A stretch of 45,119 bases of DNA from Candidatus Uhrbacteria bacterium CG_4_9_14_3_um_filter_50_9 (GCA_002791295.1 PFWU01000049.1:231-45349), one strand, 5' to 3'. Positions 9,219 to 39,130 are shown, numbered from the stretch's first letter. Notes: a model not told the origin generated them from the letters alone. Translations and numbers: made by a program.

Positions 9219-9345
9219 AAGTTTGCTCCCAAATGAGCGACCTTGCCGCTTGTGGGGCCCTGCCAGCTCCTCGCCGTACCTTCTTGGTACGGTTCGGGCG
9301 CTGGCTTCCCACGACGGCAATCTCATCTCATTTGGAAGCAAACTT
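9219..9345 (-). repeat. Rod-shaped palindromic element, copy A (REP/MITE-like or structured RNA)
   Basis: Terminal inverted repeat 18/19 (AAGTTTGCTCCCAAATGAG / CTCATTTGGAAGCAAACTT) with nested stems up to CCGTACC-5-GGTACGG; homologous to 39002-39130. Confidence 0.8.
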
Positions 9346-9376
9346 CACCTGGCTTCGACTATATCTAACGTTCAGC

Positions 9377-9405
9377 ATGCTAGACCATTCCTACTTTAAG
9401 ATCAA
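9377..9405 (-). promoter_or_regulatory. Probable promoter for tRNA-Val
   Basis: Minus strand TTGATC-17 nt-TAGCAT. Confidence 0.5.
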
Positions 9406-9435
9406 GTCTGTATACTTAAAATAATCAAAAACAAT

Positions 9436-11271
9436 ATGAAATTGAAACAATTATCACTTCAGCATATTACTGTTAGAATTTTCCAGATTGTGAAACGGTT
9501 TCCGCTCGCCATGCTTGTGTGCGTGATCGGGACCATTACTGGGATTGTTGCGATCCACGCTGATGAGCCAGGAATTCTCCCAAACATTCTTTTAACACTG
9601 TCTTTGGCTGCGCCGATTTTTGTTTCCACGGTTCTGATACTTGGGGCAAAGAAGTTGAGTGTTCCACAGCAGTGGGTGATGAATACTGCGTTCCTTGTCC
9701 TGCTCGGTGTGTATTACGTTCTGCTCCCTGATCCATCAGAGGCCGACACGATGCTCTACATGCGTCACATCATGTGGGCTTTGGGTTTTGTGCTCTTGGT
9801 CACGTTTATCCCTTTTGTGAGCAAGAAAGGAAAGGAATCTATCCTTGCCTTCTGGCAATACAATCGAGCTCTTTTATTTGCACTTGTGCTCACGTGGATC
9901 TGGGTCGGTGCGCTCCAGGCAGGTATTTCGATTGCACTTATGTCGATCGATTTTCTTTTTGAACTCAATATTGACGGGGAACGGTACGCAGAACTTTGGG
10001 TGGTACTTGTTGGAACCTTTGCCCCACTCTTTTTCTTGAATCGTCTTCCAAAGAAACCTCAGCAACACGACACAGCACTTGCGTATCCAAAAGAAGTGCG
10101 GTTGTTCTCTCAGTTTGTTCTTGTGCCACTTGTCAGTGTCTACTTCTTGATTTTGTACGCCTACACGATTCGTATTTTGATGTTATCAGAATGGCCTGAG
10201 GGGCAGCTGGCTTACATGATTCTCGGGTTTTCATTCCTCGGTGTGCTGACGTACTTGGCGCTTTACCCATTAAGGTCAACGGTGAACTGGATCAAGATTG
10301 CTGGGACGGTGCTCTTCGCTGCCATGATCCCTCAGGTAGGCATGTTATTTTGGGCCTTGTGGTTCCGCATTTCTCAATATGGAATAACAGAGAATCGCTA
10401 CTTCGTCTTTATCTTCGGCTGCTGGCTCGTTGCCATGAGTGTCTATTTTCTTGTGAGCAAGTGGAAAGATATTCGGATCATCCCAGTTACCATTTTTCTT
10501 ATCGCATTCCTTACTTCATTTGGCCCATGGGGGGCATTCAGTGTGTCAGAACGTAGTCAGATCCATCGATTAGAAGGGCTCTTGGTGGAGAATGGGATCT
10601 TAGTTGATGGGACGATTCAGAAACTCTCCACGCCTCAGGTGACTGGAGATTCTGAACAGATATCTAAGGAAGATCAAAAGGAAATCAATGCCACTGTTCG
10701 TTATCTCTATCAAGTACATGGTTTGGATGGGATTCAGGCATGGTTCAGTGAGGACTTAGATCAAATAGATGGAGATAAACGAGGTTATCAGGGGGTTCCT
10801 AGGGTCGTTGTAGAGGAGTTGATGGGGATTCAATACCTTGATCCGTGGGAATCCTCCCGCTATGAACAGGTGCTTGTTGAAGAAGGTGACACGTTTTTTC
10901 TTCTTTCAGACGACAGAGGGGGAGCGTTTGATGTCTCAGGCTATGATGTGTTTGTCGAATCTTACACCTGGCAGGTATTTATGATTGATGAGGTTGAATA
11001 CAGGGCCGCTGTTTCTGAGGATGGAATGGGCTTTGAAATTTTTCGCGAAGAGACGCTCTTGATCAATCATTCGCTTCAGGAATTTATGGGTTCATTGGAA
11101 GGTGTTGAATACACGCGGTCTGTTTCTCCTTCAGAGATGTCTGTGATGTTTGAAAATGATCTTGTGCGTGGCCTGCTTTACATTGAACATCTGAGAGGTG
11201 AGCGTGACGAAGAGGGGAACTATGTCATCGAAGAGATGACCGGACGTCTGCTCATCTCCTTTGTTGAATAG
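9436..11271 (+). CDS. DUF4153-family multi-pass membrane protein
   Basis: About 11 TM helices; VLVPLV.VY.LILYAY..RI, RISQYGITENRY and GPWGAFSVSERSQ..RL motifs. Confidence 0.88.
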   Translation: MKLKQLSLQHITVRIFQIVKRFPLAMLVCVIGTITGIVAIHADEPGILPNILLTLSLAAPIFVSTVLILGAKKLSVPQQWVMNTAFLVLLGVYYVLLPDPSEADTMLYMRHIMWALGFVLLVTFIPFVSKKGKESILAFWQYNRALLFALVLTWIWVGALQAGISIALMSIDFLFELNIDGERYAELWVVLVGTFAPLFFLNRLPKKPQQHDTALAYPKEVRLFSQFVLVPLVSVYFLILYAYTIRILMLSEWPEGQLAYMILGFSFLGVLTYLALYPLRSTVNWIKIAGTVLFAAMIPQVGMLFWALWFRISQYGITENRYFVFIFGCWLVAMSVYFLVSKWKDIRIIPVTIFLIAFLTSFGPWGAFSVSERSQIHRLEGLLVENGILVDGTIQKLSTPQVTGDSEQISKEDQKEINATVRYLYQVHGLDGIQAWFSEDLDQIDGDKRGYQGVPRVVVEELMGIQYLDPWESSRYEQVLVEEGDTFFLLSDDRGGAFDVSGYDVFVESYTWQVFMIDEVEYRAAVSEDGMGFEIFREETLLINHSLQEFMGSLEGVEYTRSVSPSEMSVMFENDLVRGLLYIEHLRGERDEEGNYVIEEMTGRLLISFVE

Positions 11272-11292
11272 TGCATGTTATACTAAAGACCT

Positions 11293-11550
11293 ATGTCACC
11301 ATTTTTTCGCATACCCCTCGGACTCATTGTGATGGTTATTGGATTTTACATGGTCGCAAAGACAGGGAAGTTTATCGAATGGTTTGGTTCTATCCCGTTT
11401 GCAGAAGACAAGTTTGGACAGGGAGGCTCCTACTTCTTCTATAAACTTCTTGGAACCTTGATTGTCTTTATTGGAATCTTTATTGCAACCAATATCATCA
11501 GTGACATTCTTGGGGATCTGGCGTGCATCTTAACAAGTTGCAATCGATAA
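11293..11550 (+). CDS. Small membrane protein (2 TM)
   Basis: Two hydrophobic helices around FGSIPFAEDKFGQGGSYFFYKL; extended -10 TGnTATACT 8 nt upstream. Confidence 0.8.
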   Translation: MSPFFRIPLGLIVMVIGFYMVAKTGKFIEWFGSIPFAEDKFGQGGSYFFYKLLGTLIVFIGIFIATNIISDILGDLACILTSCNR

Positions 11551-11552
11551 GT

Positions 11553-12107
11553 ATGGTTATGGCGACCGGTCGCGCATTACTTGATCCGTATCAGGCACTC
11601 AGGCGTGCGGGGCTCAAGACAGATATGTGGTATGCGGATCTTGGGGCGGGAACCCTTGGGCACTTTGTGTTTCCTGCTGCACAAATCGTTGGTCCTGAGG
11701 GGCGAGTGTATGGCGTTGATATTCTCAAGGGAACCATCGAGTCCATGCAGAGTAAGGCACAGCTTCTTTCTCTGCCGAATGTGATACCTCTTTGGGGCGA
11801 CATGGAGCGTGCGGACGGTATTCGAATTGAATCTGAACGTATGGACTTAGTGAGTCTGGTTGGTGTCGCCGAACTCGTGAAAGGTTCTCCTCAAGTGTTG
11901 CGTCACGCCTCTCGGCTCCTCAAGCTCCACGGACGGCTTCTCATTATTGACTGGGGTCCGGGGATGGGTTCCATTGTGGTGAAGGATGAAGATCGTATTG
12001 CGTCAGAAGGTGTCATCCAAGAAGTGCTTAAGCATCCGTTTCGACTCGTCGAGGAATTCAAGGCAGGTCCACAGCATTGGGGTCTCATTTTCGAGAGGAC
12101 GGCTTGA
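11553..12107 (+). CDS. Class I SAM-dependent methyltransferase
   Basis: ADLGAGT motif I, VGPEGRVYGVDI, LLK..GRLLIIDW, AGPQHWGLIF; start moved to ATG 11553 (or 11559). Confidence 0.88.
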   Translation: MVMATGRALLDPYQALRRAGLKTDMWYADLGAGTLGHFVFPAAQIVGPEGRVYGVDILKGTIESMQSKAQLLSLPNVIPLWGDMERADGIRIESERMDLVSLVGVAELVKGSPQVLRHASRLLKLHGRLLIIDWGPGMGSIVVKDEDRIASEGVIQEVLKHPFRLVEEFKAGPQHWGLIFERTA

Positions 12108-12168
12108 CGTTACGAGTGACGATTGGATATCCTTTTTGCGCTAAGTGTAATGTTTTCAACTAAACGGT

Positions 12169-12600
12169 ATGAATTTTCTGATTCTATTGAATCCAAATTA
12201 CTGGTTCACCATCGAGGCACCTCTTGTGACGGGCCTGATGGGGAATGTCCTCTTTGGTGTTTTTGCCCTCTGTTTCCTTTTGGGGATTGTGACTCGTGTG
12301 GTCGCTTCTAATCGGACAAAGGATCTCTATGTTCAAAAGCTAGGGCAGCGTGCGGGGACATTGTTTGTGACCATGGGACTTCTCGGAGTGGTCTTATTCT
12401 TCTTTAGCTATGAACGCATTCAGTTTTTTGGTGGACGGTTTTGGTATCCGCTCTGGCTTGTCGGATTGATTGTGTGGCTGCTCGTGCTTGTCCGGTACGC
12501 AAGACGTGATATTCCAGCGATGCGAGAACGGGATATGAATCGGAAGTCCGTCTCAAAGTATCTTCCAGCAAAAAAGAAAAAGAGAAAGAAAAAGCGTTGA
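12169..12600 (+). CDS. Membrane protein with Lys-rich C-terminus
   Basis: Three to four hydrophobic helices; ends KYLPAKKKKRKKKR. Confidence 0.8.
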   Translation: MNFLILLNPNYWFTIEAPLVTGLMGNVLFGVFALCFLLGIVTRVVASNRTKDLYVQKLGQRAGTLFVTMGLLGVVLFFFSYERIQFFGGRFWYPLWLVGLIVWLLVLVRYARRDIPAMRERDMNRKSVSKYLPAKKKKRKKKR

Positions 12601-12601
12601 T

Positions 12602-12973: not shown

Positions 12974-13016
12974 CGTTGAGCTACTGGAACCTGTCGATGA
13001 GACAGGTTTATTTATT
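12948..13016 (+). promoter_or_regulatory. nusA promoter followed by a leader hairpin with weak U-tract
   Basis: TTGACA-17-TAGCGT (12948-12976, TG extension), then AACCTGTC-gatga-GACAGGTT-TATTTATT (12988-13016). Confidence 0.6.
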
Positions 13017-13046
13017 AGAAACTACAAATGAAGTTGATCAAAACAT

Positions 13047-25440: not shown

Positions 25441-26136
25441 ATGGCGATTAAACGCATCGGAAATCGCCCGCGTTCACCCCTCGGAGCGGAGCAGAAGATT
25501 GCTTTTGCTCTATTGATGTTTCTTGGGGTTGGTGGAGTCTTTTTTGGCTTCAAATCCTTTGGTGCAAACTTGATGCGGCCGATTCAAACACAAATTGCAG
25601 ACCTGTATACAGGGGAAACGTTTTTGACCACAGGGGAGCGGGAGGCTGAGGCGCTTGAGGAATCAAAGACGAAGGACACAGACGGTGATGGTTTGGTCGA
25701 CTACGACGAGCTCTACATCTACAAGACGAGTCCCTACATTATTGATTCAGATTCGGATGGTTATAGCGACTACGAAGAAGTCTATTCAGGGAATGATCCA
25801 GGATGTCCTGTTGGTCGAACCTGTAGCTCGGTGGATGGTGATGCAGAAGAGGCCACAACAACCAATCCAGCGCTGGAGGAACTGATCGAGGCGGAAGCAG
25901 ATTCAGAATTAGCTGGTGTCGACATTGACTTGAGTGATCCGGAGTCTATCACTGAATATCTCCAGACAGTGACAATGAATGAAGTGCGTGCCGCACTGTT
26001 GGAGTCAGGAGTGTCCCAAGAGGAGTTGGATGCAATTGACGATGAGACTCTTGCAAAACTTTTTTACGAAACGCTTTCAGAGATAGAAGATGAGGGAGCT
26101 GCGGCAACAGAAGAAAGCACAGAAACGACTGAGTAA
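25441..26136 (+). CDS. Membrane-anchored acidic protein with bacterial thrombospondin type-3 (Ca-binding) repeats
   Basis: N-terminal TM helix; DTDGDGLVDYDE..IYKTSPY..DSDSDGYSDYEE...GNDP; start moved to ATG 25441. Confidence 0.85.
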   Translation: MAIKRIGNRPRSPLGAEQKIAFALLMFLGVGGVFFGFKSFGANLMRPIQTQIADLYTGETFLTTGEREAEALEESKTKDTDGDGLVDYDELYIYKTSPYIIDSDSDGYSDYEEVYSGNDPGCPVGRTCSSVDGDAEEATTTNPALEELIEAEADSELAGVDIDLSDPESITEYLQTVTMNEVRAALLESGVSQEELDAIDDETLAKLFYETLSEIEDEGAAATEESTETTE

Positions 26137-26140
26137 CCTT

Positions 26141-29100
26141 ATGCAGGTAACGCCTAAAACAAAACGATTTGTTGTCACTCTATTCCTGCTCGTTTTTTGT
26201 TTGAGTCTTGGGTCGGTTTTTCTTTCTGATGTCCCGCAGGCTCAAGCAGCTTTTGCATCTCCTGGACAATTCGGTAGCACCATGGACTATGCAACCGCAA
26301 GGCAAGAAGTGAGTGCTGGTGCGGCAGAGGGGGCATGTCCAACGGGTGGTCCGATCACAACGACTTGTCCAGCTACAGGTTTGAGGTTGGTTTTGCACAC
26401 GATTGGAGAAAAGATTATCAGTCCACAATTTCGATTGGTTCTTCTGCAAGCACTTTTGAATGTTTCTCAATTTGTTCTTGATCGATTGGCTTACGAAGCA
26501 GCTGTATCGATTGCTTCGGGTGGTCCAGGTGAGACGTCACTCTTTTATGATAAATCACCCGCAGAAGCCTTTGGTCAGTTAGGACTTGATGTAGCAGGTG
26601 AGACTCTTGGTCAGTTGAACGATATTACAAATGGGTATCTAGGAATTGGGTTCAACCTGTGTGCTCCCAGTCCACTGATTAACTGGGCTGTTTCCATTGG
26701 AATTAAACAGAGGTATCAGCCTGACAAACCTTCCTGTGACATTTTGGAGGTAGGGAAGAACTGGAATAATTACATCTCGAATACCTATCAGACGATTTCA
26801 GATCCAGATACGCGGAACACGGCCATTAAGAAAAAGTTTGCTGAGTCTTTGGCACCAGGTGCGAATGAGCTCTCCGCTTCGTTGCGTTTGAATGTGGCTG
26901 TTGATCAGCAGATTCATGAGAAAAAGATGACGAACTTTTTTGAGCGTACCGAAAAAGAGTATCTAGATGTCATTAATTTTATAACCGGAAATGTAGAAAC
27001 ACCTTCTGAAACGCTACAAGCAGAATTTACGAAGACGACTCTTGATGCAGATGGAAAGGCTACGCGTGACGCAAACTTGCAGGCAGCCATTCAGAATGCA
27101 GATCTTTTGGGAGGTCTTGCGGTTTCAACCGCCTCGACATTTGTTAATACACTTCTTTCAACACTTTTGAATCGGATTTATACCGGTTTATTTGCTATTG
27201 ATACTCCTGACATTGACCTTAATGATTATGAAGGAAGTAGTGGAGGCGATCGTGGTGCCGCCGAAGATCGTTTTGCATCACTCCTTACTTCAAGTCCAAT
27301 CGCCACAGGTTCGATCGATCTTTTGAGCAATTTTGTGGTGTGTACTGCTGGGGGTGGTAATAATCGAGGGTTAAATAATTGTGTGATGGATTCGAATTTT
27401 CTTGCGGCTGTTAGTCGTGGAAACAGTGGGGCACCGCTCACGGTGCAGGAAGCCATCAATGAGGGTCTGTTGAATGGTGATTGGCCTCTTATTTCTCCAG
27501 AAGATCGTTCTTCCAACCAAGATGCATTTTGTTATACCTATGGGTACTGCTACGGAAACATTGTGAAGCTCCGTAAGGCACGTGTTTTGCCAATTGGCTG
27601 GGAACTTGCTGCACTTCGAAATGATCCGAGCAATCCAGATTCGCTCCAAGAGATCATTGATGGATTTGATGACTGTACCGATTTAGGAACGGTTGGTTCT
27701 GCCAGTTCTGACAATGATGATAATCGCTGGTGTCACTTAATCGATCCAAACTGGGTGTTAAAGTATCCAGAAACTCAGTGTCGCGCCACGGTTAATGCGG
27801 AGATTCGTGTCAGTTCGTTGGTGAATGGTCGATTAGGGGAGTGTGTGGACGCTCCAAGTTGTATTGGAGAAGACAACGATGGAAATTGTACAGATGGCTA
27901 TGGTTACTGTGTCCAAGAGCGAAACGTTTGGCGTTTCCGTGGAGAGGAGTGTCCAGAGCAATACACCACATGCCTTGCCCTTGAAAATACAACAACAGGA
28001 GACAGTGATGGGTACCTTGTCAGTACGGTGGACTATAGTGTGTGTGATGGGGACAATGCTGGGTGTTTATGGTACCGCACGAATAAGTATTACTCGGATG
28101 GGGGAACAGAGGATGATGAATCAGACGATACCTATGAGTGGCTCCCAGATGGAGTCGACTACATGACAGCAGAACGCGATAGCGTAAATCGCTATCAGAA
28201 TTCAGCGGGGGATACATCCAGCCGTGCTTCGTTCGGTGAATACGCCTCAAAGGATGACGTTGATGATGCAACGGCAGCTGAGGTCTACTCGTACGAGGAT
28301 CGTCTCTATGTCACACATGCCGTTTCTGAGTGTGATTCTTCTGACGCAGGATGCACACAGTTATACGAAATTGACGAGGATACCATCTTAAACGTGGTGA
28401 AGAATCCGAGTTTTGAGGATGACGACGATGGGGATGCCGTGCCAGATAACTGGCAAATCGTGAGTGGTTCAACCTACGACTATGACACATCTGGTGACGC
28501 CTATTACGGGGATGCTGCGCTTGAGGTTGATGGAACATGGTTTGGTCAATATGTTGGTCTTGCACCAAGTAACTTTTACACATTGAGTGCCTACGTGCGT
28601 GCGGATGATGCATCAGAATCGAGTGGAAACATTTCGATATTCTTGTATGACGAAGATGGCGATCCTGTGAATTTAAGTGGAACGTCCGTTGGCGGTGACT
28701 GTGATGGAACGTTTTCAAGTACGGGTTCCTACATTGTGACACTTGATCCAGCCGATACCAGCACCCTTCCTACTGGGGAATGGACACGCGTGGAGTGTAC
28801 GTTCACCACGAACACAGAAGTCACCCAAGGACTCGTTAATGTGACGAGTGGTGGGGTACTCCGATTCGATGCAGTGCAATTGGAAGTAGGAGAGAACACA
28901 AATGCCTTCACCACAGGGTATCTCACCGTACCAACGGCTGCTTACTACAAGATCGCTCCGGATTACCTCGGATGCACAGGCGCCTCAACTGATCCAGATG
29001 CGTGCGACAGCTACTCCCAAATGTGTTCGGCACAAAATGTTGGATGTAGCCTTTATACTCCTGAAGACGGAGATCCATCCGTTCCAGCCATTATTTCCGA

Positions 29101-32100
29101 ACTCGATGAGTGTCCATCCGAGTGTGTTGGGTATACGACCTACAAGCAGGAAGCCACCAGTTACGATGACGAAGAATTTCCACTCTACTTTATTGCAGAC
29201 CAGGCAGCAGGCTGCTCTGAGCAATATGTTGGGTGTGATGCATTTACCAACCTAGGTCTTGTCACAGAAGGAGGGGAGAGTGTTGAGTACTACACGGAGC
29301 TTCGTGCATGTTTAACAGAAGACATGGCAGACGATTCTGATTCTGCAAAGACTCCGGCCGTTTTTTATACCTGGGAAGGTTCAGATAATGCGGGATACCA
29401 GCTGCAGACCTGGTACTTGCTTGAGTCGAATTTGAGTAGCAGTTCAACGATTACCTATACCCAAGATGAGGATGGAGATGGCACGCTTGATGTTGATCCA
29501 GACACCTCTGCTGACGTGGCGCCATGTGTTGAATGGCAAGTGAGCAGTGAAGATACTGTTGTTTGTGCAGATGATTCTGCAACCGTGAGTACACTTGAAG
29601 CAGATGACGATTGTAACGAGCACGATGACATTTTTAATAATCCAGATTGCCGTGAGTTCTTCGACGGAGAAGGAACTGTTCATTACCGTCTCTATTCTGA
29701 AACGATTAGTGTTGACGATGCCTGTACGGCGTATAGAAAAGACGAATCTTCCGAAGATGATTGTGATGCTTCTGGTGGATACTGGACTGCACAGGGATTC
29801 TGTCGTTATTACTCGTTGCCAAGTTTGGCAACCGAGTGTCCAGAGGAGCAGGCAGGATGCCGACTCTACACCGGTGGGACGGGTCGCAACGCCACAACAC
29901 TTTTGAGTGAAAACTTTGAAGGGGGAACTTATGGTGACTTCGAGTCTCTCACGGTCTCAGCCACTCCAGGACTTTCAATCAGTAACGAGTCTGTGGCCAC
30001 AGAGGGGCACTCATTGCGTATCACATCCTCTGCGGGGTACGGCGGGTTTGCAACATTACATGAATATTTGAATGGTTCTGACAACACAGATGCCTTTGAT
30101 GCAGATAATGCAGCAGCAACCTGTACCAGTTACTCGGCTCGTTATTTGAGTGACAGTGATGGTGCCTGTTTAGTGGATTTGGATGGCGACTTAGAAGGAG
30201 ACGCAGCATGCACCATTGAAGATGGAGAGTGGAGCTGTGGAACCGTGGTGGACACCCTGACCGCCGGCAAAACATTTGTGGTCGAGTTCTGGGCTAAGGG
30301 TTCAGCGGACATGCTCGTCGCCCTTGTCGAGGATGGGGGAACTTCCGCTGTCTACCACGATTTTGTAGATCCGGATAACACCTCTACAAGCTATACAGAT
30401 CTTGAACCAATTGAACTTACGGGTTCTTGGGAGGTGTATTCCGTTGGACCGCTCGACACATCAGCTCTAACAGACGTCGATCAAGACGCTGTCCTCACGT
30501 TCCTCCTAGACGGAGCAACGTCAGGTGGTGATGAAGAGATGTTTATCGATAACATTACCTTCAAGCAAGTCGAAGAGAATATTGCCATTATTAAAGACTC
30601 ATGGGTGGTTCCATCCACCTGTGACACCTCTCCAGCTGGTGTTGAATCAAATCAGTACTACCTAGGATGTGAGGCTTACGAGGACCAGAAGGGGAATGAT
30701 GTTGACTTGTATCAGTTCTCAAGCCTCTGTGAAGAAGAAGTGGTTGGTTGTGAAGCGTTCTACAATACCTACAACTCCGACTCTGAATACCAAGAGGTGT
30801 CCAACGCGCGTTGTGTCTATGATACGGATGGAGATCTGAGTGATGGAGAGACCATTCCTTCGAACAGAACCTGTGAGGTGGACGGTGTTGAATACTGCAC
30901 CATTACTTCTGGTCGAAGTTATTGTACGTTTGACGCCGAAATGACGTTTGAAGATCCACTCCCAATCGATTCCAGTACGGGATTTGGAATCGTTTATGGT
31001 CCTGAAACGGTCATCGTGCAGGGTGATCAGCCGGTGTATATTGTGGCGGATGATGCCTATGCCTGTTCTTCTTCGGTGATGGGCTGTGAGGAAGTTGGTG
31101 TTCCAACGTTTAATCAGGATCAGAGTGAAGTTGAAAGTTTTGAATCAACGTACCTCATCAATCTCCCATCGGATTACGAAAATATTTTGTGTTCGAATGA
31201 AGAGTTGTTTTGTGAAGAGTGGAGCTCATCAGATGGAAGCAACTGGTACTTCAAGGATCCATACGACAAGACCTGTGAGTATAAAACCTCCGTCACGATC
31301 GATAGTCAGACCTACTATGGTTGGTTTAGAACGGATACGAGTGAACCATGTTACTTCGACGACACAGACGACGACGAGGAATGGGATTCAGGGAGTGAAA
31401 ATGCCTACTTAATCTCGGGTGAGGAGCTTGGGATTTGGAATAATGGCGATGATGACTACGAAGCCTGGATCGCTACCTGTCCAACGCAGTACGATTTTTG
31501 TACCGAATTTATTGATGTGGTGGATACTGGTGGGGGACTCAATGAGGACGGTCAGTCCTACTATGTCACTAATGACGAATTGCTTGACGAGGAAACACTG
31601 ACAGACACACAGCGCTGCAACGGGCTTGTGAGCCAAAAATTTGGTTGTGCACTCCTGAACAACACCACCGATTCAGATCTGAACTACAACGCAAGTGCAA
31701 GTTATGTGACGTCCACTCATGCCGATGTCTTCTATAACCAAGATCCAAACGATCTCGTTGATCCAATTGATTGTAATTTGGACGAGGGTGGGGTTTTCGA
31801 GATTTCAGCTTCAGACGCTTCAGACGCCGGCATTGCAGCGAACGCTGATGGAAATTACGAAGTAAACCTTTGCGCACGACGCTGCTCATACACGCTTGAT
31901 AGCACAGATGACTCGCTCACGACGGATCTATCTGATCGGTCAGGATCGTTGCGATGGCTTGAACGTTCATGTTTGGTGGATTCAGATTGTCCGGATCTCA
32001 CCACAGCCCTTGGGGAGGATGAAAAGGGAACCTGTCGGAATGTGGATGATCTTATCTATGCTTTAAGTTATGGGGATGCGGAGGATTATTATCTCGGTAA

Positions 32101-35100
32101 CGACTCCAACGAAATTCTAAAGGTTAACCGCGACCGCACCTGTGCCGCTTGGTTGGCTTGCGAGAGCTCAAAAACAAGCTGGAACGCACAGACAAATGCG
32201 TACGACACGATCTGTGATTCGATTGACCTGTGTGTTGAAGGACAGATTCGTGGAAGTAGTGTGCAGTGTACGAATTGGGAAACAGAAGACCCTGATATTT
32301 TGACGGTTTTTGACTACTCAGCACGTGACGTGAATTGGACCGGAATTGAGTATTCTGGATACTCGATTCCAAACCAGCTGCCTGTTGAGTATTACGATCA
32401 GTTTGATTTGAACCCAACAAAGGTCTGTGTGGATTCTGATGGTGATGCGTACACAAACGATGCCGGGTATGAATATGCCTGCAACGATGCTACCGATTGT
32501 CCAAATTCAACCACAACATGTACAAGTAATTCTACTTGTTCACTAAGTGGACTGTGTAATATTGATGCGGGTGTCTGTTATGAGACGTGTGCAGATGACT
32601 ATGGTTCAGATTATCGGTTGGTTTACAATGCGGGCCCATGTGATTCAGCAGAAGACGGTGGAGTGGGTCAAGGTGGTTCGTGTACGATTGGCTATTGTGC
32701 AAGCTCGCCCGCAGACGTGTGTTCTTCCAACAGTGATTGTGTCGATGAAGACTGCGTGATTGGTTACTGTCAAGCAGAGGGGGTAAGCGGCTATACAGAT
32801 GATAGTAATCCAAGTTGTTCGACAGATGATGATTGTAGTGGTGTCGTTGATTCAGATGGAGGAGCCACATCCGTTTGTGACCCCATTCAATCCATTTGTG
32901 TTGATGTACTCACGAGTGACGAAACAAACCGTGTAGGGTGTTCTGATTTAGATGACCCAACAGAGTGTTCTGGGGCACAGGAATGTATTACATCTGACAC
33001 CACAGCTGTTGGATCCTGTTTTAACAATCGCTGTCTCACAGACGTTGTTGATTCAGATGGAGATCATTTTGCAGATGCCATCGACAGAAGTCAGTTAGGC
33101 GTGGAAGAGTGCCGTGGATATCCAGAGACCGACTCCCCATTCCCTTACAAGGTTGTTGAACAGTGGAATAAAAAAACTGATTCAAATGACGATGGCATTC
33201 CAGATTCTTCCTCTATTACACTTGCCTCAAGTGAAGATGGGGTGGAGCCATGGTCCACTCCTTACAATTACGTTTCTGGTTATCAGGATGCGATCGTTTG
33301 TGCTCCAGATGAAGATGGGGTCGTGAATGATGATTGTTTGTGTAGTTACGATAAAGTTGAATACGGAGAAGGGACGAAACACCTTTATTACGAAGCCGGA
33401 ACGATTGCGAATGATCCAATTGTTGAAGGATTCTGTGCTTCCGGAGATAAAGCGGGTTGGCCTTGCTCAGAGGATAGTGATTGTGACGGATCTGGATCAG
33501 CATCCAGTACCTGTGAGAGTGCCACAAGTATTCAGACGCTTTACGGTTGGCAGGGATACTGTATTGAACGAGATACCTCGATTCAACTCAACGGAAGTTC
33601 CCAAGATCAGGATCAGGCCTGCCTCACATGGCTCCCGGTTGACCAGCTTTCTGGGGCCACAGACCTTTATGGAAAGTACACAGAAGCAGGTTACCCACTA
33701 CAAAATACCTACTTCTGTACGGAGGTCGCTCAGTACTTTGACCTGTATCCAACAGGAGCAAAGTTAGATAGTGATGGTGTGGTGGATGATATAGAGTGGG
33801 CCTGCGCAGATTCTGGGTTTGCTGGTGGGGCTTGTGATGGATGGGAAGAAGGTAAGGGAGATCCTTATGGAAAAGATGATATCTGTATTGATAATGCTCT
33901 GTGTCCTGATCAGTATTTTGCGATTCTTGGTCATTGCGACAACACCATCTCTGATGCGATCGGTGGAGAGGATAATTGGAAGGATGCAGATGGTGAAGAT
34001 CATGCAGATGCGTTGTGTCAGGATAATGTGATTGATGATTACTTAGCTGAACACGGAGCTTCGGACGACTGTCCTTACATGTGCATCCATCGAGACAGTG
34101 TTCATCTCCAAGGTCCTGATGCTGGGGAATCGTGTTTGGATTCAATTAAAGATAATTCAGGTGATTACACATATCGAGGGGAGAACACACTTGGACAGTC
34201 CGTCTACTCCGCTGGTTGGCTTAACTATGGTCCAGATGATTATGAGAGTGATGAGAGTTTTTTAAGAGACTGTGTCACCCGTGGAGTGAGTGAGTGGTAT
34301 GACGGGACATGGCCGATTGGGAGTTCGGATAAGTATATTGCGAGTGATGGACTAGTTGCTGATTTGGCACAGTTTTCTCACATGGCGTGGGGCCCAATGG
34401 ATAATTTCGGATTTGGAAAGTGCAGTTCATCATCAAAACTCTGCACGTCCGATGATGACTGTACTTATTCATCATTTTATGGGAATTACTGTGCTGATTT
34501 TGATATCGATAGTGATCATGATGGTATTGTTGATATTCCAGCTCTTACTTGTATGAATGATCCATCGGTCAGCTGTACGGCGGCTACAGAGACTATTGAC
34601 TGTTCCGGTACAACATACACAGGCACCTGTGTGGAAACAACCATGTACGCTCAAGCAGAGAGCTTTGAGGGGTATGGAAGCATGATGCCGTACTTGGCTT
34701 GTGCTCAGATTGTGCAAGCTTCATCAGCAGACCCGGATGATTCAAACAAGGCTTGGACCAATCGTTTGTGGGAAAGTTACTCAGATCTCTACACAGGCGG
34801 AAACAGAAGTGATTTCGCAGACGGTTCAGGGGATATTTATCCATTTGATTATGCGGTGACAGACTCACCATTAGAACTCGGTCGTGCGTTGTTTGAGGAG
34901 GTGTATGAAGAGTCTGGGGAGGGGTACATGATTATGTCAGAGCTTTCAAATGATAGCTTCCCACTCCCAACACGTTCATGTAATACCTCCAACAATGCCG
35001 CCTTTGATGATAGTGGTGATGTGGCTTGGTCTGTTGGAATCGCGACAACTCCAGACGATTATTGTGATGCCTCGTACTCGTGGTGGGAGTATCCGATGAT

Positions 35101-36295
35101 GAAGCAATGGCAATGGCTTCCTCCAAGTTCAGATTATGATGCTGACGGACCGGAGAGTTTTCTTCCAGTGGAGGCGAATGGTGACTACGCCGTTCTCTCA
35201 CTGCCGTTTGAGGATCTTGATTCAGAAGATGTTTTTGCCAGCGATCAAGTAGAAGATCCGATTGATGGTTTTGGTAACAGCACTTCATTGGATTACAAGA
35301 GTATTTCAGAATTCTTGAGTCAGTACTTTGCAGAGATCTTTGCTGTTTGGGAGTACGATGATGATAATACAGCGTATGATGACTGGGATTCTGCTGAATC
35401 AGGGGATCAAGGGGGTGCGTATGTGCTTGTTAATTCAGACCATGCATTTGACATCAGCTCTGGTGAGGATTCAGGAAGCTTAAAAGAAATTGATAACTTT
35501 GGGTCTGGAGCAAACAAATTCCCTAATGATGATGAACGAGCACCGGTGATTATCTCTGTGGGGGAGTGTGTTGGTACGCAATGTTATGAAGATGAAGAAG
35601 GGGCGTTCAGTGTGGGTGAAGTAGATAGTGGAACGCTTGTTGGTGAAGGAGAAAAGCGTGTGGACGTGAGCTTCTTTGTCAAAGGCGCTCCAAACCAATT
35701 GCCATTGAAGAAAATCATTGTTGATTGGGGTGATGCGTATACCTACACAAACAGTGGTCCAGATTGGCCAACAGATTCTCAAAGTGGTTCAACCGCCTCA
35801 AATAACTTCTATAAGAATCACCGTGGATTGGATGCGGGTGGAACAGAAAATTGTACAAAATCTGAAAAGTGGGGTGAGACGTCTGACTCATGTAGCTCAA
35901 GCTATGTGCTCTTCACTCACAATTACGTTTGTACAGCTGCCTATGTGAACTCACTCGTAGACAAGGGACGGGAGTGTGACGTAGGTGAGGATGGAAATCT
36001 CCTTATCTCGCCATGTACAGGAAACGCATCAGGTACCAGCGATAACATTTCCGGCGCTGACGGAGCCTGCGTCTACCAACCAAGAGTCCACGCAGTAGAC
36101 AACTGGGGGTGGTGTACGGGAACATGCAATTCGAATTCAGAGGATGATTCGGATGCGTGTTATGGAAGTGAGTGTAACGTAGATGCATGCCCAAGCGGGG
36201 GGTATGCAGGGTATGCGTGTATTGAACAGAATTTTACAGGAACAACAAGTGATCCTTGGGTGTACTTTGACGGATATATCGTCGTGAGTCCGTAA
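26141..36295 (+). CDS. Giant (~3384 aa) secreted Cys/Asp-rich surface protein with carbohydrate-binding-module-like domains
   Basis: Signal peptide (FVVTLFLLVFCLSLG...AQA); helical N-region; repeated C-x5-GC units; two CBM-like beta-sandwiches (NPSFED...PDNW...FDAVQLE; ENFEGG...FIDNITF); DxDxDG loops; C-x2-(D/N)-x-DC repeats; PKD-like IIVDWGD C-terminus. Start moved to ATG 26141. Confidence 0.9.
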   Translation: MQVTPKTKRFVVTLFLLVFCLSLGSVFLSDVPQAQAAFASPGQFGSTMDYATARQEVSAGAAEGACPTGGPITTTCPATGLRLVLHTIGEKIISPQFRLVLLQALLNVSQFVLDRLAYEAAVSIASGGPGETSLFYDKSPAEAFGQLGLDVAGETLGQLNDITNGYLGIGFNLCAPSPLINWAVSIGIKQRYQPDKPSCDILEVGKNWNNYISNTYQTISDPDTRNTAIKKKFAESLAPGANELSASLRLNVAVDQQIHEKKMTNFFERTEKEYLDVINFITGNVETPSETLQAEFTKTTLDADGKATRDANLQAAIQNADLLGGLAVSTASTFVNTLLSTLLNRIYTGLFAIDTPDIDLNDYEGSSGGDRGAAEDRFASLLTSSPIATGSIDLLSNFVVCTAGGGNNRGLNNCVMDSNFLAAVSRGNSGAPLTVQEAINEGLLNGDWPLISPEDRSSNQDAFCYTYGYCYGNIVKLRKARVLPIGWELAALRNDPSNPDSLQEIIDGFDDCTDLGTVGSASSDNDDNRWCHLIDPNWVLKYPETQCRATVNAEIRVSSLVNGRLGECVDAPSCIGEDNDGNCTDGYGYCVQERNVWRFRGEECPEQYTTCLALENTTTGDSDGYLVSTVDYSVCDGDNAGCLWYRTNKYYSDGGTEDDESDDTYEWLPDGVDYMTAERDSVNRYQNSAGDTSSRASFGEYASKDDVDDATAAEVYSYEDRLYVTHAVSECDSSDAGCTQLYEIDEDTILNVVKNPSFEDDDDGDAVPDNWQIVSGSTYDYDTSGDAYYGDAALEVDGTWFGQYVGLAPSNFYTLSAYVRADDASESSGNISIFLYDEDGDPVNLSGTSVGGDCDGTFSSTGSYIVTLDPADTSTLPTGEWTRVECTFTTNTEVTQGLVNVTSGGVLRFDAVQLEVGENTNAFTTGYLTVPTAAYYKIAPDYLGCTGASTDPDACDSYSQMCSAQNVGCSLYTPEDGDPSVPAIISELDECPSECVGYTTYKQEATSYDDEEFPLYFIADQAAGCSEQYVGCDAFTNLGLVTEGGESVEYYTELRACLTEDMADDSDSAKTPAVFYTWEGSDNAGYQLQTWYLLESNLSSSSTITYTQDEDGDGTLDVDPDTSADVAPCVEWQVSSEDTVVCADDSATVSTLEADDDCNEHDDIFNNPDCREFFDGEGTVHYRLYSETISVDDACTAYRKDESSEDDCDASGGYWTAQGFCRYYSLPSLATECPEEQAGCRLYTGGTGRNATTLLSENFEGGTYGDFESLTVSATPGLSISNESVATEGHSLRITSSAGYGGFATLHEYLNGSDNTDAFDADNAAATCTSYSARYLSDSDGACLVDLDGDLEGDAACTIEDGEWSCGTVVDTLTAGKTFVVEFWAKGSADMLVALVEDGGTSAVYHDFVDPDNTSTSYTDLEPIELTGSWEVYSVGPLDTSALTDVDQDAVLTFLLDGATSGGDEEMFIDNITFKQVEENIAIIKDSWVVPSTCDTSPAGVESNQYYLGCEAYEDQKGNDVDLYQFSSLCEEEVVGCEAFYNTYNSDSEYQEVSNARCVYDTDGDLSDGETIPSNRTCEVDGVEYCTITSGRSYCTFDAEMTFEDPLPIDSSTGFGIVYGPETVIVQGDQPVYIVADDAYACSSSVMGCEEVGVPTFNQDQSEVESFESTYLINLPSDYENILCSNEELFCEEWSSSDGSNWYFKDPYDKTCEYKTSVTIDSQTYYGWFRTDTSEPCYFDDTDDDEEWDSGSENAYLISGEELGIWNNGDDDYEAWIATCPTQYDFCTEFIDVVDTGGGLNEDGQSYYVTNDELLDEETLTDTQRCNGLVSQKFGCALLNNTTDSDLNYNASASYVTSTHADVFYNQDPNDLVDPIDCNLDEGGVFEISASDASDAGIAANADGNYEVNLCARRCSYTLDSTDDSLTTDLSDRSGSLRWLERSCLVDSDCPDLTTALGEDEKGTCRNVDDLIYALSYGDAEDYYLGNDSNEILKVNRDRTCAAWLACESSKTSWNAQTNAYDTICDSIDLCVEGQIRGSSVQCTNWETEDPDILTVFDYSARDVNWTGIEYSGYSIPNQLPVEYYDQFDLNPTKVCVDSDGDAYTNDAGYEYACNDATDCPNSTTTCTSNSTCSLSGLCNIDAGVCYETCADDYGSDYRLVYNAGPCDSAEDGGVGQGGSCTIGYCASSPADVCSSNSDCVDEDCVIGYCQAEGVSGYTDDSNPSCSTDDDCSGVVDSDGGATSVCDPIQSICVDVLTSDETNRVGCSDLDDPTECSGAQECITSDTTAVGSCFNNRCLTDVVDSDGDHFADAIDRSQLGVEECRGYPETDSPFPYKVVEQWNKKTDSNDDGIPDSSSITLASSEDGVEPWSTPYNYVSGYQDAIVCAPDEDGVVNDDCLCSYDKVEYGEGTKHLYYEAGTIANDPIVEGFCASGDKAGWPCSEDSDCDGSGSASSTCESATSIQTLYGWQGYCIERDTSIQLNGSSQDQDQACLTWLPVDQLSGATDLYGKYTEAGYPLQNTYFCTEVAQYFDLYPTGAKLDSDGVVDDIEWACADSGFAGGACDGWEEGKGDPYGKDDICIDNALCPDQYFAILGHCDNTISDAIGGEDNWKDADGEDHADALCQDNVIDDYLAEHGASDDCPYMCIHRDSVHLQGPDAGESCLDSIKDNSGDYTYRGENTLGQSVYSAGWLNYGPDDYESDESFLRDCVTRGVSEWYDGTWPIGSSDKYIASDGLVADLAQFSHMAWGPMDNFGFGKCSSSSKLCTSDDDCTYSSFYGNYCADFDIDSDHDGIVDIPALTCMNDPSVSCTAATETIDCSGTTYTGTCVETTMYAQAESFEGYGSMMPYLACAQIVQASSADPDDSNKAWTNRLWESYSDLYTGGNRSDFADGSGDIYPFDYAVTDSPLELGRALFEEVYEESGEGYMIMSELSNDSFPLPTRSCNTSNNAAFDDSGDVAWSVGIATTPDDYCDASYSWWEYPMMKQWQWLPPSSDYDADGPESFLPVEANGDYAVLSLPFEDLDSEDVFASDQVEDPIDGFGNSTSLDYKSISEFLSQYFAEIFAVWEYDDDNTAYDDWDSAESGDQGGAYVLVNSDHAFDISSGEDSGSLKEIDNFGSGANKFPNDDERAPVIISVGECVGTQCYEDEEGAFSVGEVDSGTLVGEGEKRVDVSFFVKGAPNQLPLKKIIVDWGDAYTYTNSGPDWPTDSQSGSTASNNFYKNHRGLDAGGTENCTKSEKWGETSDSCSSSYVLFTHNYVCTAAYVNSLVDKGRECDVGEDGNLLISPCTGNASGTSDNISGADGACVYQPRVHAVDNWGWCTGTCNSNSEDDSDACYGSECNVDACPSGGYAGYACIEQNFTGTTSDPWVYFDGYIVVSP

Positions 36296-36333
36296 CAACA
36301 AAACGAGGCCAAGTGGCCTCGTTTTGTTGTTAC
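36292..36333 (+). terminator. Terminator of the giant-protein operon
   Basis: Perfect 19-bp arms GTAACAACAAAACGAGGCC-aagt-GGCCTCGTTTTGTTGTTAC overlapping the stop codon. Confidence 0.85.
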
Positions 36334-36387
36334 AAGTACTTTCTTCTTGAGATGCATGCCACGGATCAAACATAAATCTTGTGTAAC

Positions 36388-36429
36388 AATTGAAAAACCG
36401 GCAGAGGATTCCGAGGAATCATGCCGGTC
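36388..36429 (-). terminator. Terminator of the 222-aa lipoprotein gene
   Basis: Minus strand ACCGGCA-tGATTCC-tc-GGAATC-ctc-TGCCGGT-TTTTCAATT. Confidence 0.7.
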
Positions 36430-36449
36430 GTTGCGACTGTACTGGTGCA

Positions 36450-37118
36450 TCAGTCGCGGTGGAAAAGGAACTCGTCGACTTCGCCACTGGTGGCATTGAG
36501 CTTGGTCATCGAGAAGGTTTCTTCATCGATGATCGTACCGCTCCACCAACTACCAGAGTCAGTCGAGCCGTAGAAGTCGTAGTCACTCATCGTGGCGTCC
36601 GAGCCACCCGCGACGTTCTCGATCGTGATCGTGTCACCGATCGTGATCGTGATCTCCGCTTCACGACCCCAGATCTCGTCCGTGTACGAGCCCTCAAGCG
36701 GAGGGAAGCCGTACTCGCCGGGCACCCACTCGTCGCAGGGACCAGTGGCGTCCCAGTCGGGGTCGCTGGCGCAGCCGCCTTCGGCCCACTCGACGGAGAA
36801 CTCGCCGGTGGTCTGGACTTCGACAGTCTTGGGCACGAAGGTGTACGTGTCCCAGGCCTCGACATCGTACGTGCCGGCTTCGTCCACCAGGTAGGTGCAC
36901 GAGGTGCCGGCGCAGGTGGCGTCGATTCCGTCGACGGTCACTTCCACCCCTTCGAAGGGGGTGGTGGCCACGATGGTGGCTTCGAAGTCGTTGACTCCGG
37001 TGTCGTCGCCGGTGTCCACCGTTTCGTTCCCGTTGTTGTCGTTCGGATCGCCGCACCCCACCGCGAAGGCGAGGGGCAGCGCGATCAGGGCCAGGAGGCC
37101 GTAGTTGGTCGCGTTCAT
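36450..37118 (-). CDS. Acidic lipoprotein, hypothetical (222 aa)
   Basis: Signal with lipobox AVGC; PEGA-like GVEVTVDG...GTYDVEA segment; very GC-rich codons; AGGGG SD. Confidence 0.85.
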   Translation of the reverse strand: MNATNYGLLALIALPLAFAVGCGDPNDNNGNETVDTGDDTGVNDFEATIVATTPFEGVEVTVDGIDATCAGTSCTYLVDEAGTYDVEAWDTYTFVPKTVEVQTTGEFSVEWAEGGCASDPDWDATGPCDEWVPGEYGFPPLEGSYTDEIWGREAEITITIGDTITIENVAGGSDATMSDYDFYGSTDSGSWWSGTIIDEETFSMTKLNATSGEVDEFLFHRD

Positions 37119-37293
37119 GGGTTTCCCCTTTCTGCCCCGCGGGGGTGCGTGACCCAGACAATTCTAGGACAACGACCTTTTGCGGGATTGTTGAAGGATC
37201 CCGCTAGATGCGGGAGGGCGGTGATTAGCCGCAGCCATTGGTGGGGGACACGTGTCACCTATCAGTGGCTACGACTAAGACGCTCAAAAACCC

Positions 37294-37349
37294 TTACTAA
37301 AGAACAGTGTATCTAAATACAGTAGGCCATATTTAAGGGGTTTTGTCAA
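37294..37349 (-). promoter_or_regulatory. Promoter and boxA-like motif for the 222-aa lipoprotein
   Basis: Minus strand TTGACA (37344-37349), a weak or long-spaced -10 (TACTGT at 19 nt), then CTGTTCTTTAGTAA (37294-37307) and a ~180-nt hairpin-rich leader. Confidence 0.5.
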
Positions 37350-37549
37350 TAGGCAAAGGGTTCAAAGAGGTTATATTGTAGGAAAAAGTGTGTGGATTGT
37401 GGATAACACACCCATGAATCACGCAATGTTTATCGCTCATGTCATCAACATACAGAAATAATGCTAAGCCATCACGATAAGTAAAGTTCCATATATAAAA
37501 GCTTCTTAACCAGACAAAACAACACTCCTTCAAATAAAACTCCTCTAAA

Positions 37550-37577
37550 CAAACTTGTAGCGATCGCTACAAGTTTG
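37550..37577. repeat. 28-bp perfect palindrome, copy 1 (just past the stop of the PaaX/Cas2-like gene)
   Basis: CAAACTTGTAGCGA|TCGCTACAAGTTTG. Confidence 0.95.
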
Positions 37578-37578
37578 A

Positions 37579-38103
37579 TTAACAAATGGTTTGAGCTAGC
37601 AATACTGACGCCCACTTCTCGATACCTAATAGTTTGATGAGTTGGTGGATTTCTGACGTGACGTTACTCTTTGTCGTCCATACACTCAGCTGTTTTTGTT
37701 CAAATCCCGAAGATTTCAAAAAGCGCCTAAAGGTTGTTCTGGCTGACTTTGCCGCCTCTGGAAAGTCAAAAATTATGACCGTTTCATAACCACCAGGCAG
37801 TTGTTGTGTGTTGGTTCTGACTTTGTGCTTCACCCCTTCAATAATTGCGTCTTTGCTTAGCAGATAAATGACTTGCTCACCCTCTTGATGATTTTGCACC
37901 CACCCTTTATGTTGCATCTGTTTTAACGCTCGAGCCTCCTTGTTTTTTCTAAAAATTGCATCCCATTCCTCTGAGCTCATACCTCCTCTCATCTCTCGTC
38001 TGAATGCATAAGGATTACTCGCCCAATCAAAAAGCATTCCACCACCATCAAGCAATGATCCCATCACCTCTCCAACAATTGATTTTTTCTTTTTATCTGG
38101 CAT
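37579..38103 (-). CDS. PaaX-like protein (winged-helix wing plus Cas2-like ferredoxin-fold domain)
   Basis: ARALKQMQHKGWV......VIYLLS, followed by VIIFDFPE..KSAR..FRRFLKSSGFEQKQLSVW. Confidence 0.82.
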   Translation of the reverse strand: MPDKKKKSIVGEVMGSLLDGGGMLFDWASNPYAFRREMRGGMSSEEWDAIFRKNKEARALKQMQHKGWVQNHQEGEQVIYLLSKDAIIEGVKHKVRTNTQQLPGGYETVIIFDFPEAAKSARTTFRRFLKSSGFEQKQLSVWTTKSNVTSEIHQLIKLLGIEKWASVLLAQTIC

Positions 38104-38107
38104 AGGA

Positions 38108-38130
38108 CAAACATGTAGCGATCACTACAA
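38108..38130. repeat. Palindrome copy 2 (4 nt upstream of the ATG of the PaaX/Cas2-like gene)
   Basis: CAAACATGTAGCGATCACTACAA, 21/23 identical to copy 1. Confidence 0.9.
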
Positions 38131-38202
38131 ATAGTGGCTGAGTAATGTTCACTCCCAGCAAAAGAAAAGCCCTCCAGCAAGGAATGTGGAGGGTATAATT
38201 AA

Positions 38203-38230
38203 AAGATACAGACGCAACAGAGATTGTCAA
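38203..38230 (-). promoter_or_regulatory. Promoter of the PaaX/Cas2-like gene
   Basis: Minus strand TTGACA-16 nt-TATCTT, followed by a terminator-like hairpin (38159-38193). Confidence 0.55.
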
Positions 38231-38253
38231 TACTTGTCGCGATCGACAAGTAT
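38230..38253. repeat. Palindrome copy 3 (abutting the -35 box)
   Basis: ATACTTGTCG-cgat-CGACAAGTAT; shares ACTTGT.GCGATCG and ACAAGT with copy 1. Confidence 0.75.
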
Positions 38254-38310
38254 GTATCAGCGAATAGATGGATGAAAACGTTCTATACTAGGGGCTAATA
38301 GAGGTATCCA

Positions 38311-38339
38311 TTGACAAATTTTACAGTCCTGATTACGTT
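38311..38339 (+). promoter_or_regulatory. sigma70 promoter of the lipoprotein gene
   Basis: TTGACA-17 nt-TACGTT. Confidence 0.7.
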
Positions 38340-38380
38340 TTTGGTAGACAGGATCTCATTTTAGTCAGACATTTTAACCG

Positions 38381-38962
38381 ATGAGTACTATGAAGTTTTT
38401 TCTAGGGATCATGTTCGTTGTTCTCCTGGCTGGGGCAGGATGTGCGTCAACGTCGGTTCAGGAAACGGAAACCTCTCCTGTTTCCGAAGCGTCTGAACGT
38501 GAGGAGGATTCGCAAGGTGAGTTTTCATCCTACTCAATGAGTAAAGGCATACTCCTTTTAGCTGCTCCGTCCGGTTGGAGTGTTTCTCAATCTGATGGCG
38601 GGAGCGTGAGTGTGGTGCTTGCGCAAGCGAGTGACGAAGCGTGGATCAATATCCAGATTGAACGTGCGGATACCTTTAGTGGTGAAGTACGTGAGTATCA
38701 GGTGTGGCTTTCAGAGCAAGGCCTTCCTGAGCCAAGCGGTGAACGGGAAGTCGGGGGCGTCATGTTCGACTGGTTTGATGAGGTTGATAACAGAACGATC
38801 TTCACAACCGTCTATGTGGCCGAGATTGAGCATGAAGGTCTTGGTTACTTTGTGACGATCAGCACGCCAGAGGAAGAATTACTAGAAACACGGCAGGTGC
38901 GGGACTCGATCATCTTCTCTCCAAGCGCTGAGCAACTAAGTGGTTCACAAGTGATTGAATAG
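38381..38962 (+). CDS. Lipoprotein, possibly PsbP/Mog1p-like fold
   Basis: Lipobox LAGAGC; PSGWSV strand-turn and C-terminal VRDSIIF pattern typical of PsbP-like proteins. The start may be 38390. Confidence 0.8.
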   Translation: MSTMKFFLGIMFVVLLAGAGCASTSVQETETSPVSEASEREEDSQGEFSSYSMSKGILLLAAPSGWSVSQSDGGSVSVVLAQASDEAWINIQIERADTFSGEVREYQVWLSEQGLPEPSGEREVGGVMFDWFDEVDNRTIFTTVYVAEIEHEGLGYFVTISTPEEELLETRQVRDSIIFSPSAEQLSGSQVIE

Positions 38963-38966
38963 GATA

Positions 38967-38994
38967 AAAAAGACGCGACTAAGCGCGTCTTTTT
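38967..38994 (+). terminator. Terminator of the lipoprotein gene
   Basis: AAAAAGACGCG-actaag-CGCGTCTTTTT. Confidence 0.85.
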
Positions 38995-39001
38995 GGTTTA
39001 C

Positions 39002-39130
39002 GGGACTGTTCCCCAATGCGATGAGATTGGCTTGAACGGGCTGTCGATCGCTGAAAACGTCCTCAAACGGACGTTGAAGCGATGACTGGGTGCCTGTGAA
39101 AGCCAAGATCGCGCATTCGGGAATAGTTCC
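39002..39130 (+). repeat. Rod-shaped palindromic element, copy B (REP/MITE-like or structured RNA)
   Basis: Nested stems GGGACTGTTCCC/GGGAATAGTTCC, AATGCG/CGCATT, TTGGCTT/AAGCCAA, ATCGCT/AGCGAT, AACGTCC/GGACGTT; homologous to the minus strand of 9219-9345. Confidence 0.8.

Follow-up and report, generated by a model that had tools for sequence, protein, structure and literature searches.

The stretch analysed here (the window, 45,119 nt) comes from Candidatus Uhrbacteria bacterium CG_4_9_14_3_um_filter_50_9, whose genome (the source genome, G000; 1.07 Mb in 55 contigs, numbered C below) carries a dispersed, non-coding hairpin element. Two complete copies, here called A and B, are located in the window and a third one begins just before its end. 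The features at these three sites are as follows, with the evidence for each in brackets.

9142-9218, minus strand: tRNA-Val(tac), its mature 5′ end directly after copy A (ARAGORN; Rfam tRNA, 74.5 bits)
9219-9345, minus strand: copy A, old diverged subtype, a 127-nt hairpin in the 5′ leader of tRNA-Val(tac) (fold, covariance model R1)
38971-38994, plus strand: terminator-like stem-loop and T-run of the upstream gene (direct reading; missing from the consensus scan)
38997-39001, plus strand: TTTAC, left 5-base direct repeat of copy B (direct reading; flank comparison)
39002-39130, plus strand: copy B, young subtype, a 129-nt hairpin element (fold, model R1, BLAST)
39131-39135, plus strand: TTTAC, right 5-base direct repeat of copy B (direct reading; flank comparison)
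45088-45119, plus strand: first 32 bases of the third, diverged copy (model R1, 59.8 bits, E 9.5e-11; nhmmer)

In full, the third copy straddles the window end and spans G000:C12:45318-45446. R1 is a covariance model built from 18 copies of the source genome, one copy with a run of N having been excluded; an R1 search scores only part of the candidates, so that the counts derived from it are lower bounds.

Both complete copies fold into a single interrupted hairpin, copy A at −79.1 kcal/mol (z −11.5) and copy B at −75.5 kcal/mol (z −10.9), the z-scores being relative to dinucleotide shuffles. Model R1 gives copy A 91.6 bits on the minus strand versus 26.4 on the plus strand, and copy B 137.5 bits on the plus strand versus 25.8 on the minus strand, a strand difference of 65-110 bits; the E-values of the two copies are 1.6e-30 and 1.2e-19, from a model which includes other copies too. 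An original prediction, made from the window alone, had described two related rod-shaped elements at these positions and on these strands, and fold energies, z-scores and R1 scores agree with it; the arms it quoted, and the compensatory stem changes between the two copies, read in the sequence as claimed. It had also placed copy A against the 5′ end of tRNA-Val without any spacer, which is where ARAGORN and Rfam put the tRNA, and it had named a match to an already described family as the finding that would remove novelty. No Rfam family matched either copy: at gathering score Rfam 15 reports just two tRNAs in the whole window, nothing meaningfully overlaps copies A and B at E-values up to 10, and at 20 loci with copies of the source genome tRNAs alone were matched. 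The setting proposed for copy B, between a terminator and a cassette promoter, held up in its first half; the terminator is legible directly, its T-run 7 bases from the copy, while the promoter is unconfirmed, the consensus scan having found none on the plus strand between copy B and the next gene. A 124-aa open reading frame (ORF) at window positions 8967-9341 on the minus strand, running through tRNA-Val and copy A, is almost certainly spurious.

Copies A and B belong to a dispersed hairpin-repeat family of one Patescibacteria order. BLAST together with iterated nhmmer found 19 loci in the source genome, the R1 model at least 23 (E up to 1e-4), and a wider nhmmer profile built on copies from many genomes 27; copy B is 95-98% identical to at least four of them, on C10, C11, C28 and C29 (BLAST). 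Among 41 genomes of the order, that is, the source genome and 40 relatives (G001-G040), R1 has a match in 30 (E up to 0.001; at most 33 in any genome) and none in 11, and the number of elements per genome ranges from 0 to ~34. In a sample of 151 genomes drawn evenly across the class, searched with stricter filters, six have an R1 match, two of them from the order. The covariance-model search which the original prediction had put forward as a check thus recovered many further copies, in the genome itself and in related ones. The unit is 122-130 nt long and non-coding. Its orientation to neighbouring ORFs is mixed among 22 copies; 4 of them fall within a called ORF of 90 aa or more, but the ORF calls are crude and these ORFs may be spurious. 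In a DNA-level synteny comparison with five relatives the repeat copies alone aligned, the flanks being too diverged.

RNAalifold predicts 43 pairs from the 18 copies of the source genome, 35 of them with compensatory change. In an alignment of 78 copies from ~25 genomes, fitted to the R1 model, 93.2% of the pair cells are standard versus 64.5% in column shuffles, 41 of the 43 pairs are altered on both sides, and the covariation score is 0.748 versus 0.203, with none of 500 shuffles reaching 0.748; when the partners are slid by 1-3 columns the score is at most 0.126. The structural selection with base-pair covariation which had been read from two copies is thereby borne out. The inverted repeat extends over the entire unit, and its outer helix comprises 27 pairs, 96% paired. 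Between subtypes the hairpin tips vary, yet remain paired, and certain unpaired elements are kept: in at least 90% of a set of 62 copies (66 matches minus three reverse-strand duplicates and one 46-nt fragment) GATGAGAT is found on the 5′ arm, A..TCG.C on the 3′ arm, and G/A residues flank the apical stem on both sides. The two arm stretches together form a bulged A, a U·G pair, two pairs and a tandem G/A loop, and a G-rich bulge is also present in the element. In four copies this conserved core is one pair shorter with the loop kept, and in one copy it is swapped for Watson-Crick pairs. The tandem G/A loops prompted a comparison by eye with known ribozymes and kink-turns, which were rejected; the rod is unbranched, no Rfam ribozyme matches it and the bulge is misplaced relative to the kink-turn as commonly described.

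The element is conserved on one strand. Stem cells in the 62 copies are made up of 2253 Watson-Crick, 244 G·T and 30 A·C combinations, and without the invariant U·G pair G·T still exceeds A·C, by 76 versus 23 in 28 tRNA-linked copies and by 142 versus 16 in 50 other copies; the preference for G-U over A-C first seen in copies A and B is thus one of the whole family. This excess, together with the gap in model score between the strands, indicates that the selected object is one folded strand, which is either RNA or single-stranded DNA.

Several signs of mobility accompany the fold. Young copies, copy B among them, are bounded by direct repeats; repeats of at least 6 nt flank 14 of the 62 copies, versus 2.9% when the flanks of different copies are paired. 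The exact length of the repeats reads 5-9 owing to terminal G/C bases; the part not assignable to these bases of the element is 5 bases long. Such 5-base cores are TTTAC at copy B and TATAC, GTTAT, TACAC and CGAAT at other copies of the source genome; copies on C10, C28, C29 and C11 have cores of this kind, and two copies in the relative G006 have the same flanking pattern. By eye, several insertion sites fall either within the loop of a hairpin resembling a terminator or a few bases past a terminator T-run. A second hairpin repeat of 160 bp, present in three full copies, ends in the terminal 12-mer of the young subtype; one of its copies folds at −79 kcal/mol and one has a perfect 5-base flanking repeat. 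Its copies, recognised by the terminal 12-mer, are located at:

G000:C10:6767-6927: 160-bp hairpin repeat
C31:6496-6655: 160-bp hairpin repeat
C47:3913-4072: 160-bp hairpin repeat

The 12-mer common to the 128-nt and 160-bp repeats suggests one machinery reading those tips. The same 12-mer also occurs alone at about a dozen places in the source genome, including C12:90898, C44:8226, C46:1812, C42:702, C24:6370 and C18:2680; several of these precede housekeeping genes by a few to 75 bases and could be leftover ends or a regulatory site. The ORFs beside the solitary 12-mers were considered as transposases and rejected, as they encode threonyl-tRNA synthetase, phosphoglycerate kinase, an MFS transporter, an AAA ATPase and S-adenosylmethionine synthetase instead.

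What had been a detail in the first reading of the window, the contact of copy A with a tRNA, is the most striking property of the family. In four fully listed genomes 29 of 107 copies are followed, at a distance of 0-10 nt and on the same strand, by a tRNA gene, where ~0.03 would be expected by chance given ~46 tRNAs per 1-Mb genome. For the three relatives all R1 matches and all Rfam tRNAs were listed; the same-strand counts are:

G000: 8 of 27 copies tRNA-linked
G037: 15 of 25 copies tRNA-linked, that is, 15 of its 46 tRNA genes
G028: 4 of 21 copies tRNA-linked; one more at a tRNA 3′ end
G006: 2 of 34 copies tRNA-linked

The tRNAs bearing the element are of many different kinds; in the source genome they are Val-tac (copy A), Asp, Gly-ccc, Met, Lys-ttt, Ser-gct, Ser-tga and Arg-gcg. 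A ninth copy there is followed by a tRNA-like 5′ end, interrupted by the end of the contig, and one further copy adjoins a tRNA 3′ end on the opposite strand. Three copies of the source genome are ~95% alike, their similarity being confined to the 128-nt unit, and each is followed after 1-3 nt by a different tRNA. Every copy found of that subtype is tRNA-linked, whereas none of the 12 copies of the young subtype is; this contrast points to aimed insertion, for at least one subtype, beyond mere survival. The element in front of tRNA-Asp is directly preceded by the 5′ arm of a different subtype (G000:C4:534-600), which suggests nested or truncated copies.

Regarding transcription, none of 24 runs listed proved to be an RNA run containing this DNA. 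Of 27 tRNA-linked copies, 7 have a promoter-like site of at least 9/12 consensus matches whose −10 hexamer ends 8-30 nt before the element begins. Because the −10 distance varies, the fixed relation appears to be with the tRNA end and not with the transcription start; that the start of the element coincides with the start of transcription was rejected on the same spread of 8-30 nt in the seven best cases. In 20 of the 38 tRNA genes of the source genome a −10-like hexamer ends 0-22 nt before the tRNA, 11 of these genes being without the element, which, on weak consensus evidence, would suggest short leaders. That the leaders are explained by a loss of RNase P was likewise rejected. The RNase P protein is encoded in the source genome (rnpA, C52), and RNase P RNA was found in all five relatives searched; in the 55 contigs of the source genome it was not found (RF00010, RF00011), which probably reflects an assembly gap.

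Comparison of relatives indicates how the sites change. G028 and G037, which belong to one genus, have 4 and 15 occupied tRNAs, respectively, with Pro(ggg) alone in common. At this site the two tRNAs, together with a part of the promoter region, show conservation, and the copies are 69% identical; of the 43 model pairs 27 are unchanged, 10 are changed on both sides and 5 on one side with pairing retained, and 1 is broken. The G028 copy keeps 39 of 43 pairs, versus 24.4 ± 2.7 expected from random placement of the 27 paired-column differences (2000 trials, maximum 33). Each Pro(ggg) copy is nearer to other copies (74% and 72%) than to its counterpart (69%), and for this reason the site may reflect compensatory change in situ or else two insertion events. 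In the relative G005 a tRNA-Val(tac) beside an ortholog of the 611-aa ORF of the window is without the element (best E 0.34 in a model search with filters off); there, a promoter-like site is separated from the tRNA by 20 nt of plain sequence. The genes for tRNA-Leu(gag) and tRNA-Val(tac) and the 611-aa ORF are neighbours both at window positions 7970-11271 and at G005:C3:3006-7784, in a different order and orientation; in the source genome there is also a GC-rich stretch of ~1.1 kb between tRNA-Leu(gag) and tRNA-Val(tac). Orthology of copy A with a G006 copy before tRNA-Val(tac) gained no support from the neighbouring gene, the 611-aa ORF being unmatched in the 1.1-kb locus around the G006 copy and in G006.

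These properties are probably those of a MITE-like (miniature inverted-repeat transposable element-like), non-coding mobile hairpin family of ~128 bp which is native to one Patescibacteria order, whose folded single strand is under selection and which is unusually frequent in tRNA leaders; of the readings considered this one is best supported. The original prediction had spoken of a dispersed family akin to repetitive extragenic palindromic (REP) sequences or MITEs, which the 27 loci of the source genome, the order-wide spread, the covariation and the direct repeats support, while the matching transposase was not found. In the mechanism proposed here, a trans-acting enzyme would recognise the termini and cut and paste, or copy, the unit by way of a staggered 5-bp cut, and selection would act on the folded single strand, be it as DNA during mobilisation or as RNA. 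Copies inserted downstream of a tRNA promoter and ahead of the mature 5′ end would be co-transcribed with the tRNA and then removed by RNase P, which would render them harmless and let them persist; the tRNA 5′ leader position seems to be the target of at least one subtype. A more far-reaching version, drawn by analogy, is that of a bacterial mobile element aimed at the tRNA 5′ boundary and carried along in the pre-tRNA leader; the tRNA promoter would express it, and RNase P would free a discrete, fully paired rod RNA that is possibly selected, copied or bound by a protein of the host or one related to symbiosis; this is tentative, and rather doubtful as a whole.

A number of observations weigh against a mobile element of this kind. 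No autonomous partner with matching ends was found, and no pair of terminal 12-mers brackets a transposase ORF in the source genome. Five enzyme families were searched at E 1e-5, namely reverse transcriptase (RT, PF00078), Y1_Tnp (PF01797), DDE_Tnp_1 (PF01609), rve (PF00665) and DDE_Tnp_Tn3 (PF01526), and none of the five tracks copy number; at this threshold all five are without a match in G037 (25 copies) and G024 (15 copies), and the element-free G022 and G009 have several matches. The sole rve match in the source genome is an IS30-like transposase ORF of 347 aa at the start of a contig (C44:1-1050), which was rejected as the parent element, its ends being unlike those of the hairpin. Terminal sequences which vary between subtypes are also unusual for a transposase reading the tips. 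No direct repeat of at least 4 nt is present at 26 of the 62 copies, mostly old or tRNA-linked ones, nor do the three ~95% alike tRNA-linked copies have any. Among four other DNA runs no contig was found that skips copy B (window 36000-45119); the contigs from those runs have copy B in place and end inside it, with the summed depth rising from ~5 to 6.7-40 over the element. The alignments behind the pair counts were fitted to the model, which biases them towards structure, although the margin over the controls is very large, and aimed insertion and mere survival in tRNA leaders are not separable with certainty.

The main rival, one compatible with mobility, is a function at the RNA level: the rods would primarily be functional RNAs, either structured leaders or small RNAs released by RNase P, bound by protein via their internal loops, and the dispersed copies would be by-products. 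The strand-specific fold with its tolerance of G·U, the features described above that persist over 78 copies (the core with its bulged A, U·G pair and tandem G/A loop, as well as the G-rich bulge and the apical GA..GA) and the fact that transcription of each of the 29 same-strand tRNA-linked copies in four genomes would yield the folding strand speak for it, as does the Pro(ggg) pair, which retains 39 of 43 pairs despite 27 differences at paired positions; these two copies, however, may be separate insertions. The distribution of the element fits such a function less well, as 11 of the 41 genomes of the order are without a copy, copy number is erratic, the occupied tRNAs are nearly all different between the congeneric G028 and G037, young copies are found in either orientation to ORFs with no promoter of their own seen, and one copy has its conserved core replaced by Watson-Crick pairs. 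That the rods are functional RNAs in the first place is accordingly considered unlikely, if less so than the remaining alternatives.

Mobility could also be of another type, namely that of a single-stranded DNA hairpin moved by a Y1 (HUH) transposase as in REPIN/RAYT or IS200/IS605. A unit which is a hairpin throughout, with conserved mismatches and one preferred strand, would suit such an enzyme, and Y1_Tnp proteins are common in the order (30 of 41 genomes, many of them as open frames of ~290 aa and up to 8 per genome). Reverse transcriptase genes are present in 27 of 41 genomes; both kinds of gene are frequent for 1-Mb genomes. The Y1_Tnp proteins are nevertheless in the wrong places, none being detected (PF01797, E 1e-5) in the source genome, G037 or G024, while the element-free G022 has 8 matches. 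Moreover, Y1 (HUH) transposition is not known to make flanking direct repeats of the sort seen, with 5-base cores, at young copies, and the element shows no replication-strand bias, the local GC skew on its strand being negative at 13 and positive at 9 of 22 copies. A Y1 mechanism is therefore judged quite improbable. Chance likeness of two unrelated hairpins, for example terminators, which the original prediction had kept in view should further copies and covariation be lacking, can practically be dismissed in view of the E-values of 1.6e-30 and 1.2e-19, the dozens of further copies and the covariation.

Hairpin-forming intergenic repeats are a well-known kind of element. ERIC/IRU, Correia (NEMIS) and the Rickettsia palindromic elements are dispersed, non-coding, imperfect palindromes of ~100-160 bp which are mostly intergenic, occur in either orientation, form RNA hairpins if transcribed and vary in copy number among relatives. 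The family described here, compared with the general descriptions of these elements, is alike in size, palindromy and dispersal; it differs in that about a quarter of its copies precede same-strand tRNA genes, in that its tips are variable and its internal loops conserved, and in its host, a Patescibacteria genome of ~1 Mb. With REPINs and their RAYT it shares, again by general description, long hairpins with compensatory change, single-strand folding and within-genome families, but there is no co-occurrence with Y1_Tnp, direct repeats are present and the unit is no doublet of a short REP. Measured against what defines a bacterial MITE, it is short, dispersed and non-coding and has terminal inverted repeats; a parent insertion sequence with the same ends was not found. 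In behaviour only, as commonly described, it resembles Ty3 of yeast and TRE5 of Dictyostelium, which prefer positions just upstream of varied tRNA genes, a region that is a safe site for them in a compact genome. Ty3 and TRE5 come with genes for a reverse transcriptase and an integrase of their own and make use of the Pol III machinery, whereas the element here has no ORF, is located inside the tRNA leader, where it is predicted to be transcribed, and has a copy number which reverse transcriptase genes do not track. Dispersed repeats are rare in the ultrasmall, host-dependent Patescibacteria genomes; the part of the full-text literature that was covered has no such repeat in Patescibacteria and no bacterial MITEs upstream of tRNA genes. 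As far as this part goes, what is new is the tRNA-leader habit, the conserved internal loops combined with variable tips, and the host group.

With a 125-nt hairpin 0-10 bases 5′ of 15 of the 46 tRNA genes in G037, the family raises questions which can be tested: how RNase P handles a leader whose pairing reaches right to the cleavage site, whether there is any targeting of bacterial tRNA 5′ ends guided by sequence or structure, and by which enzyme an element with variable tips and conserved internal loops is moved. If true, an element aimed at tRNAs would be a prokaryotic counterpart of the tRNA-targeting retrotransposons of eukaryotes. On the practical side, the element breaks assemblies, and automatic annotation can misread its hairpins as riboswitches, leaders or small ORFs.

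The surroundings of the copies had also been linked to GC-rich inserts, of which a weak tendency at most is left: a neighbouring ORF with a GC content of at least 0.58 is found at 8 of 22 copies, versus 19.4% of all gaps between ORFs, with a binomial p of ~0.05. In the window, blocks of 54-62% GC in a background of ~47% are located at 39131-42200, 1-2000, 8001-9000 and 36001-37000; the one which follows copy B contains ORFs at 39292-40272 and 40112-42187. Upstream of copy B, window positions 26090-36295 on the plus strand form one open reading frame of 3401 aa.

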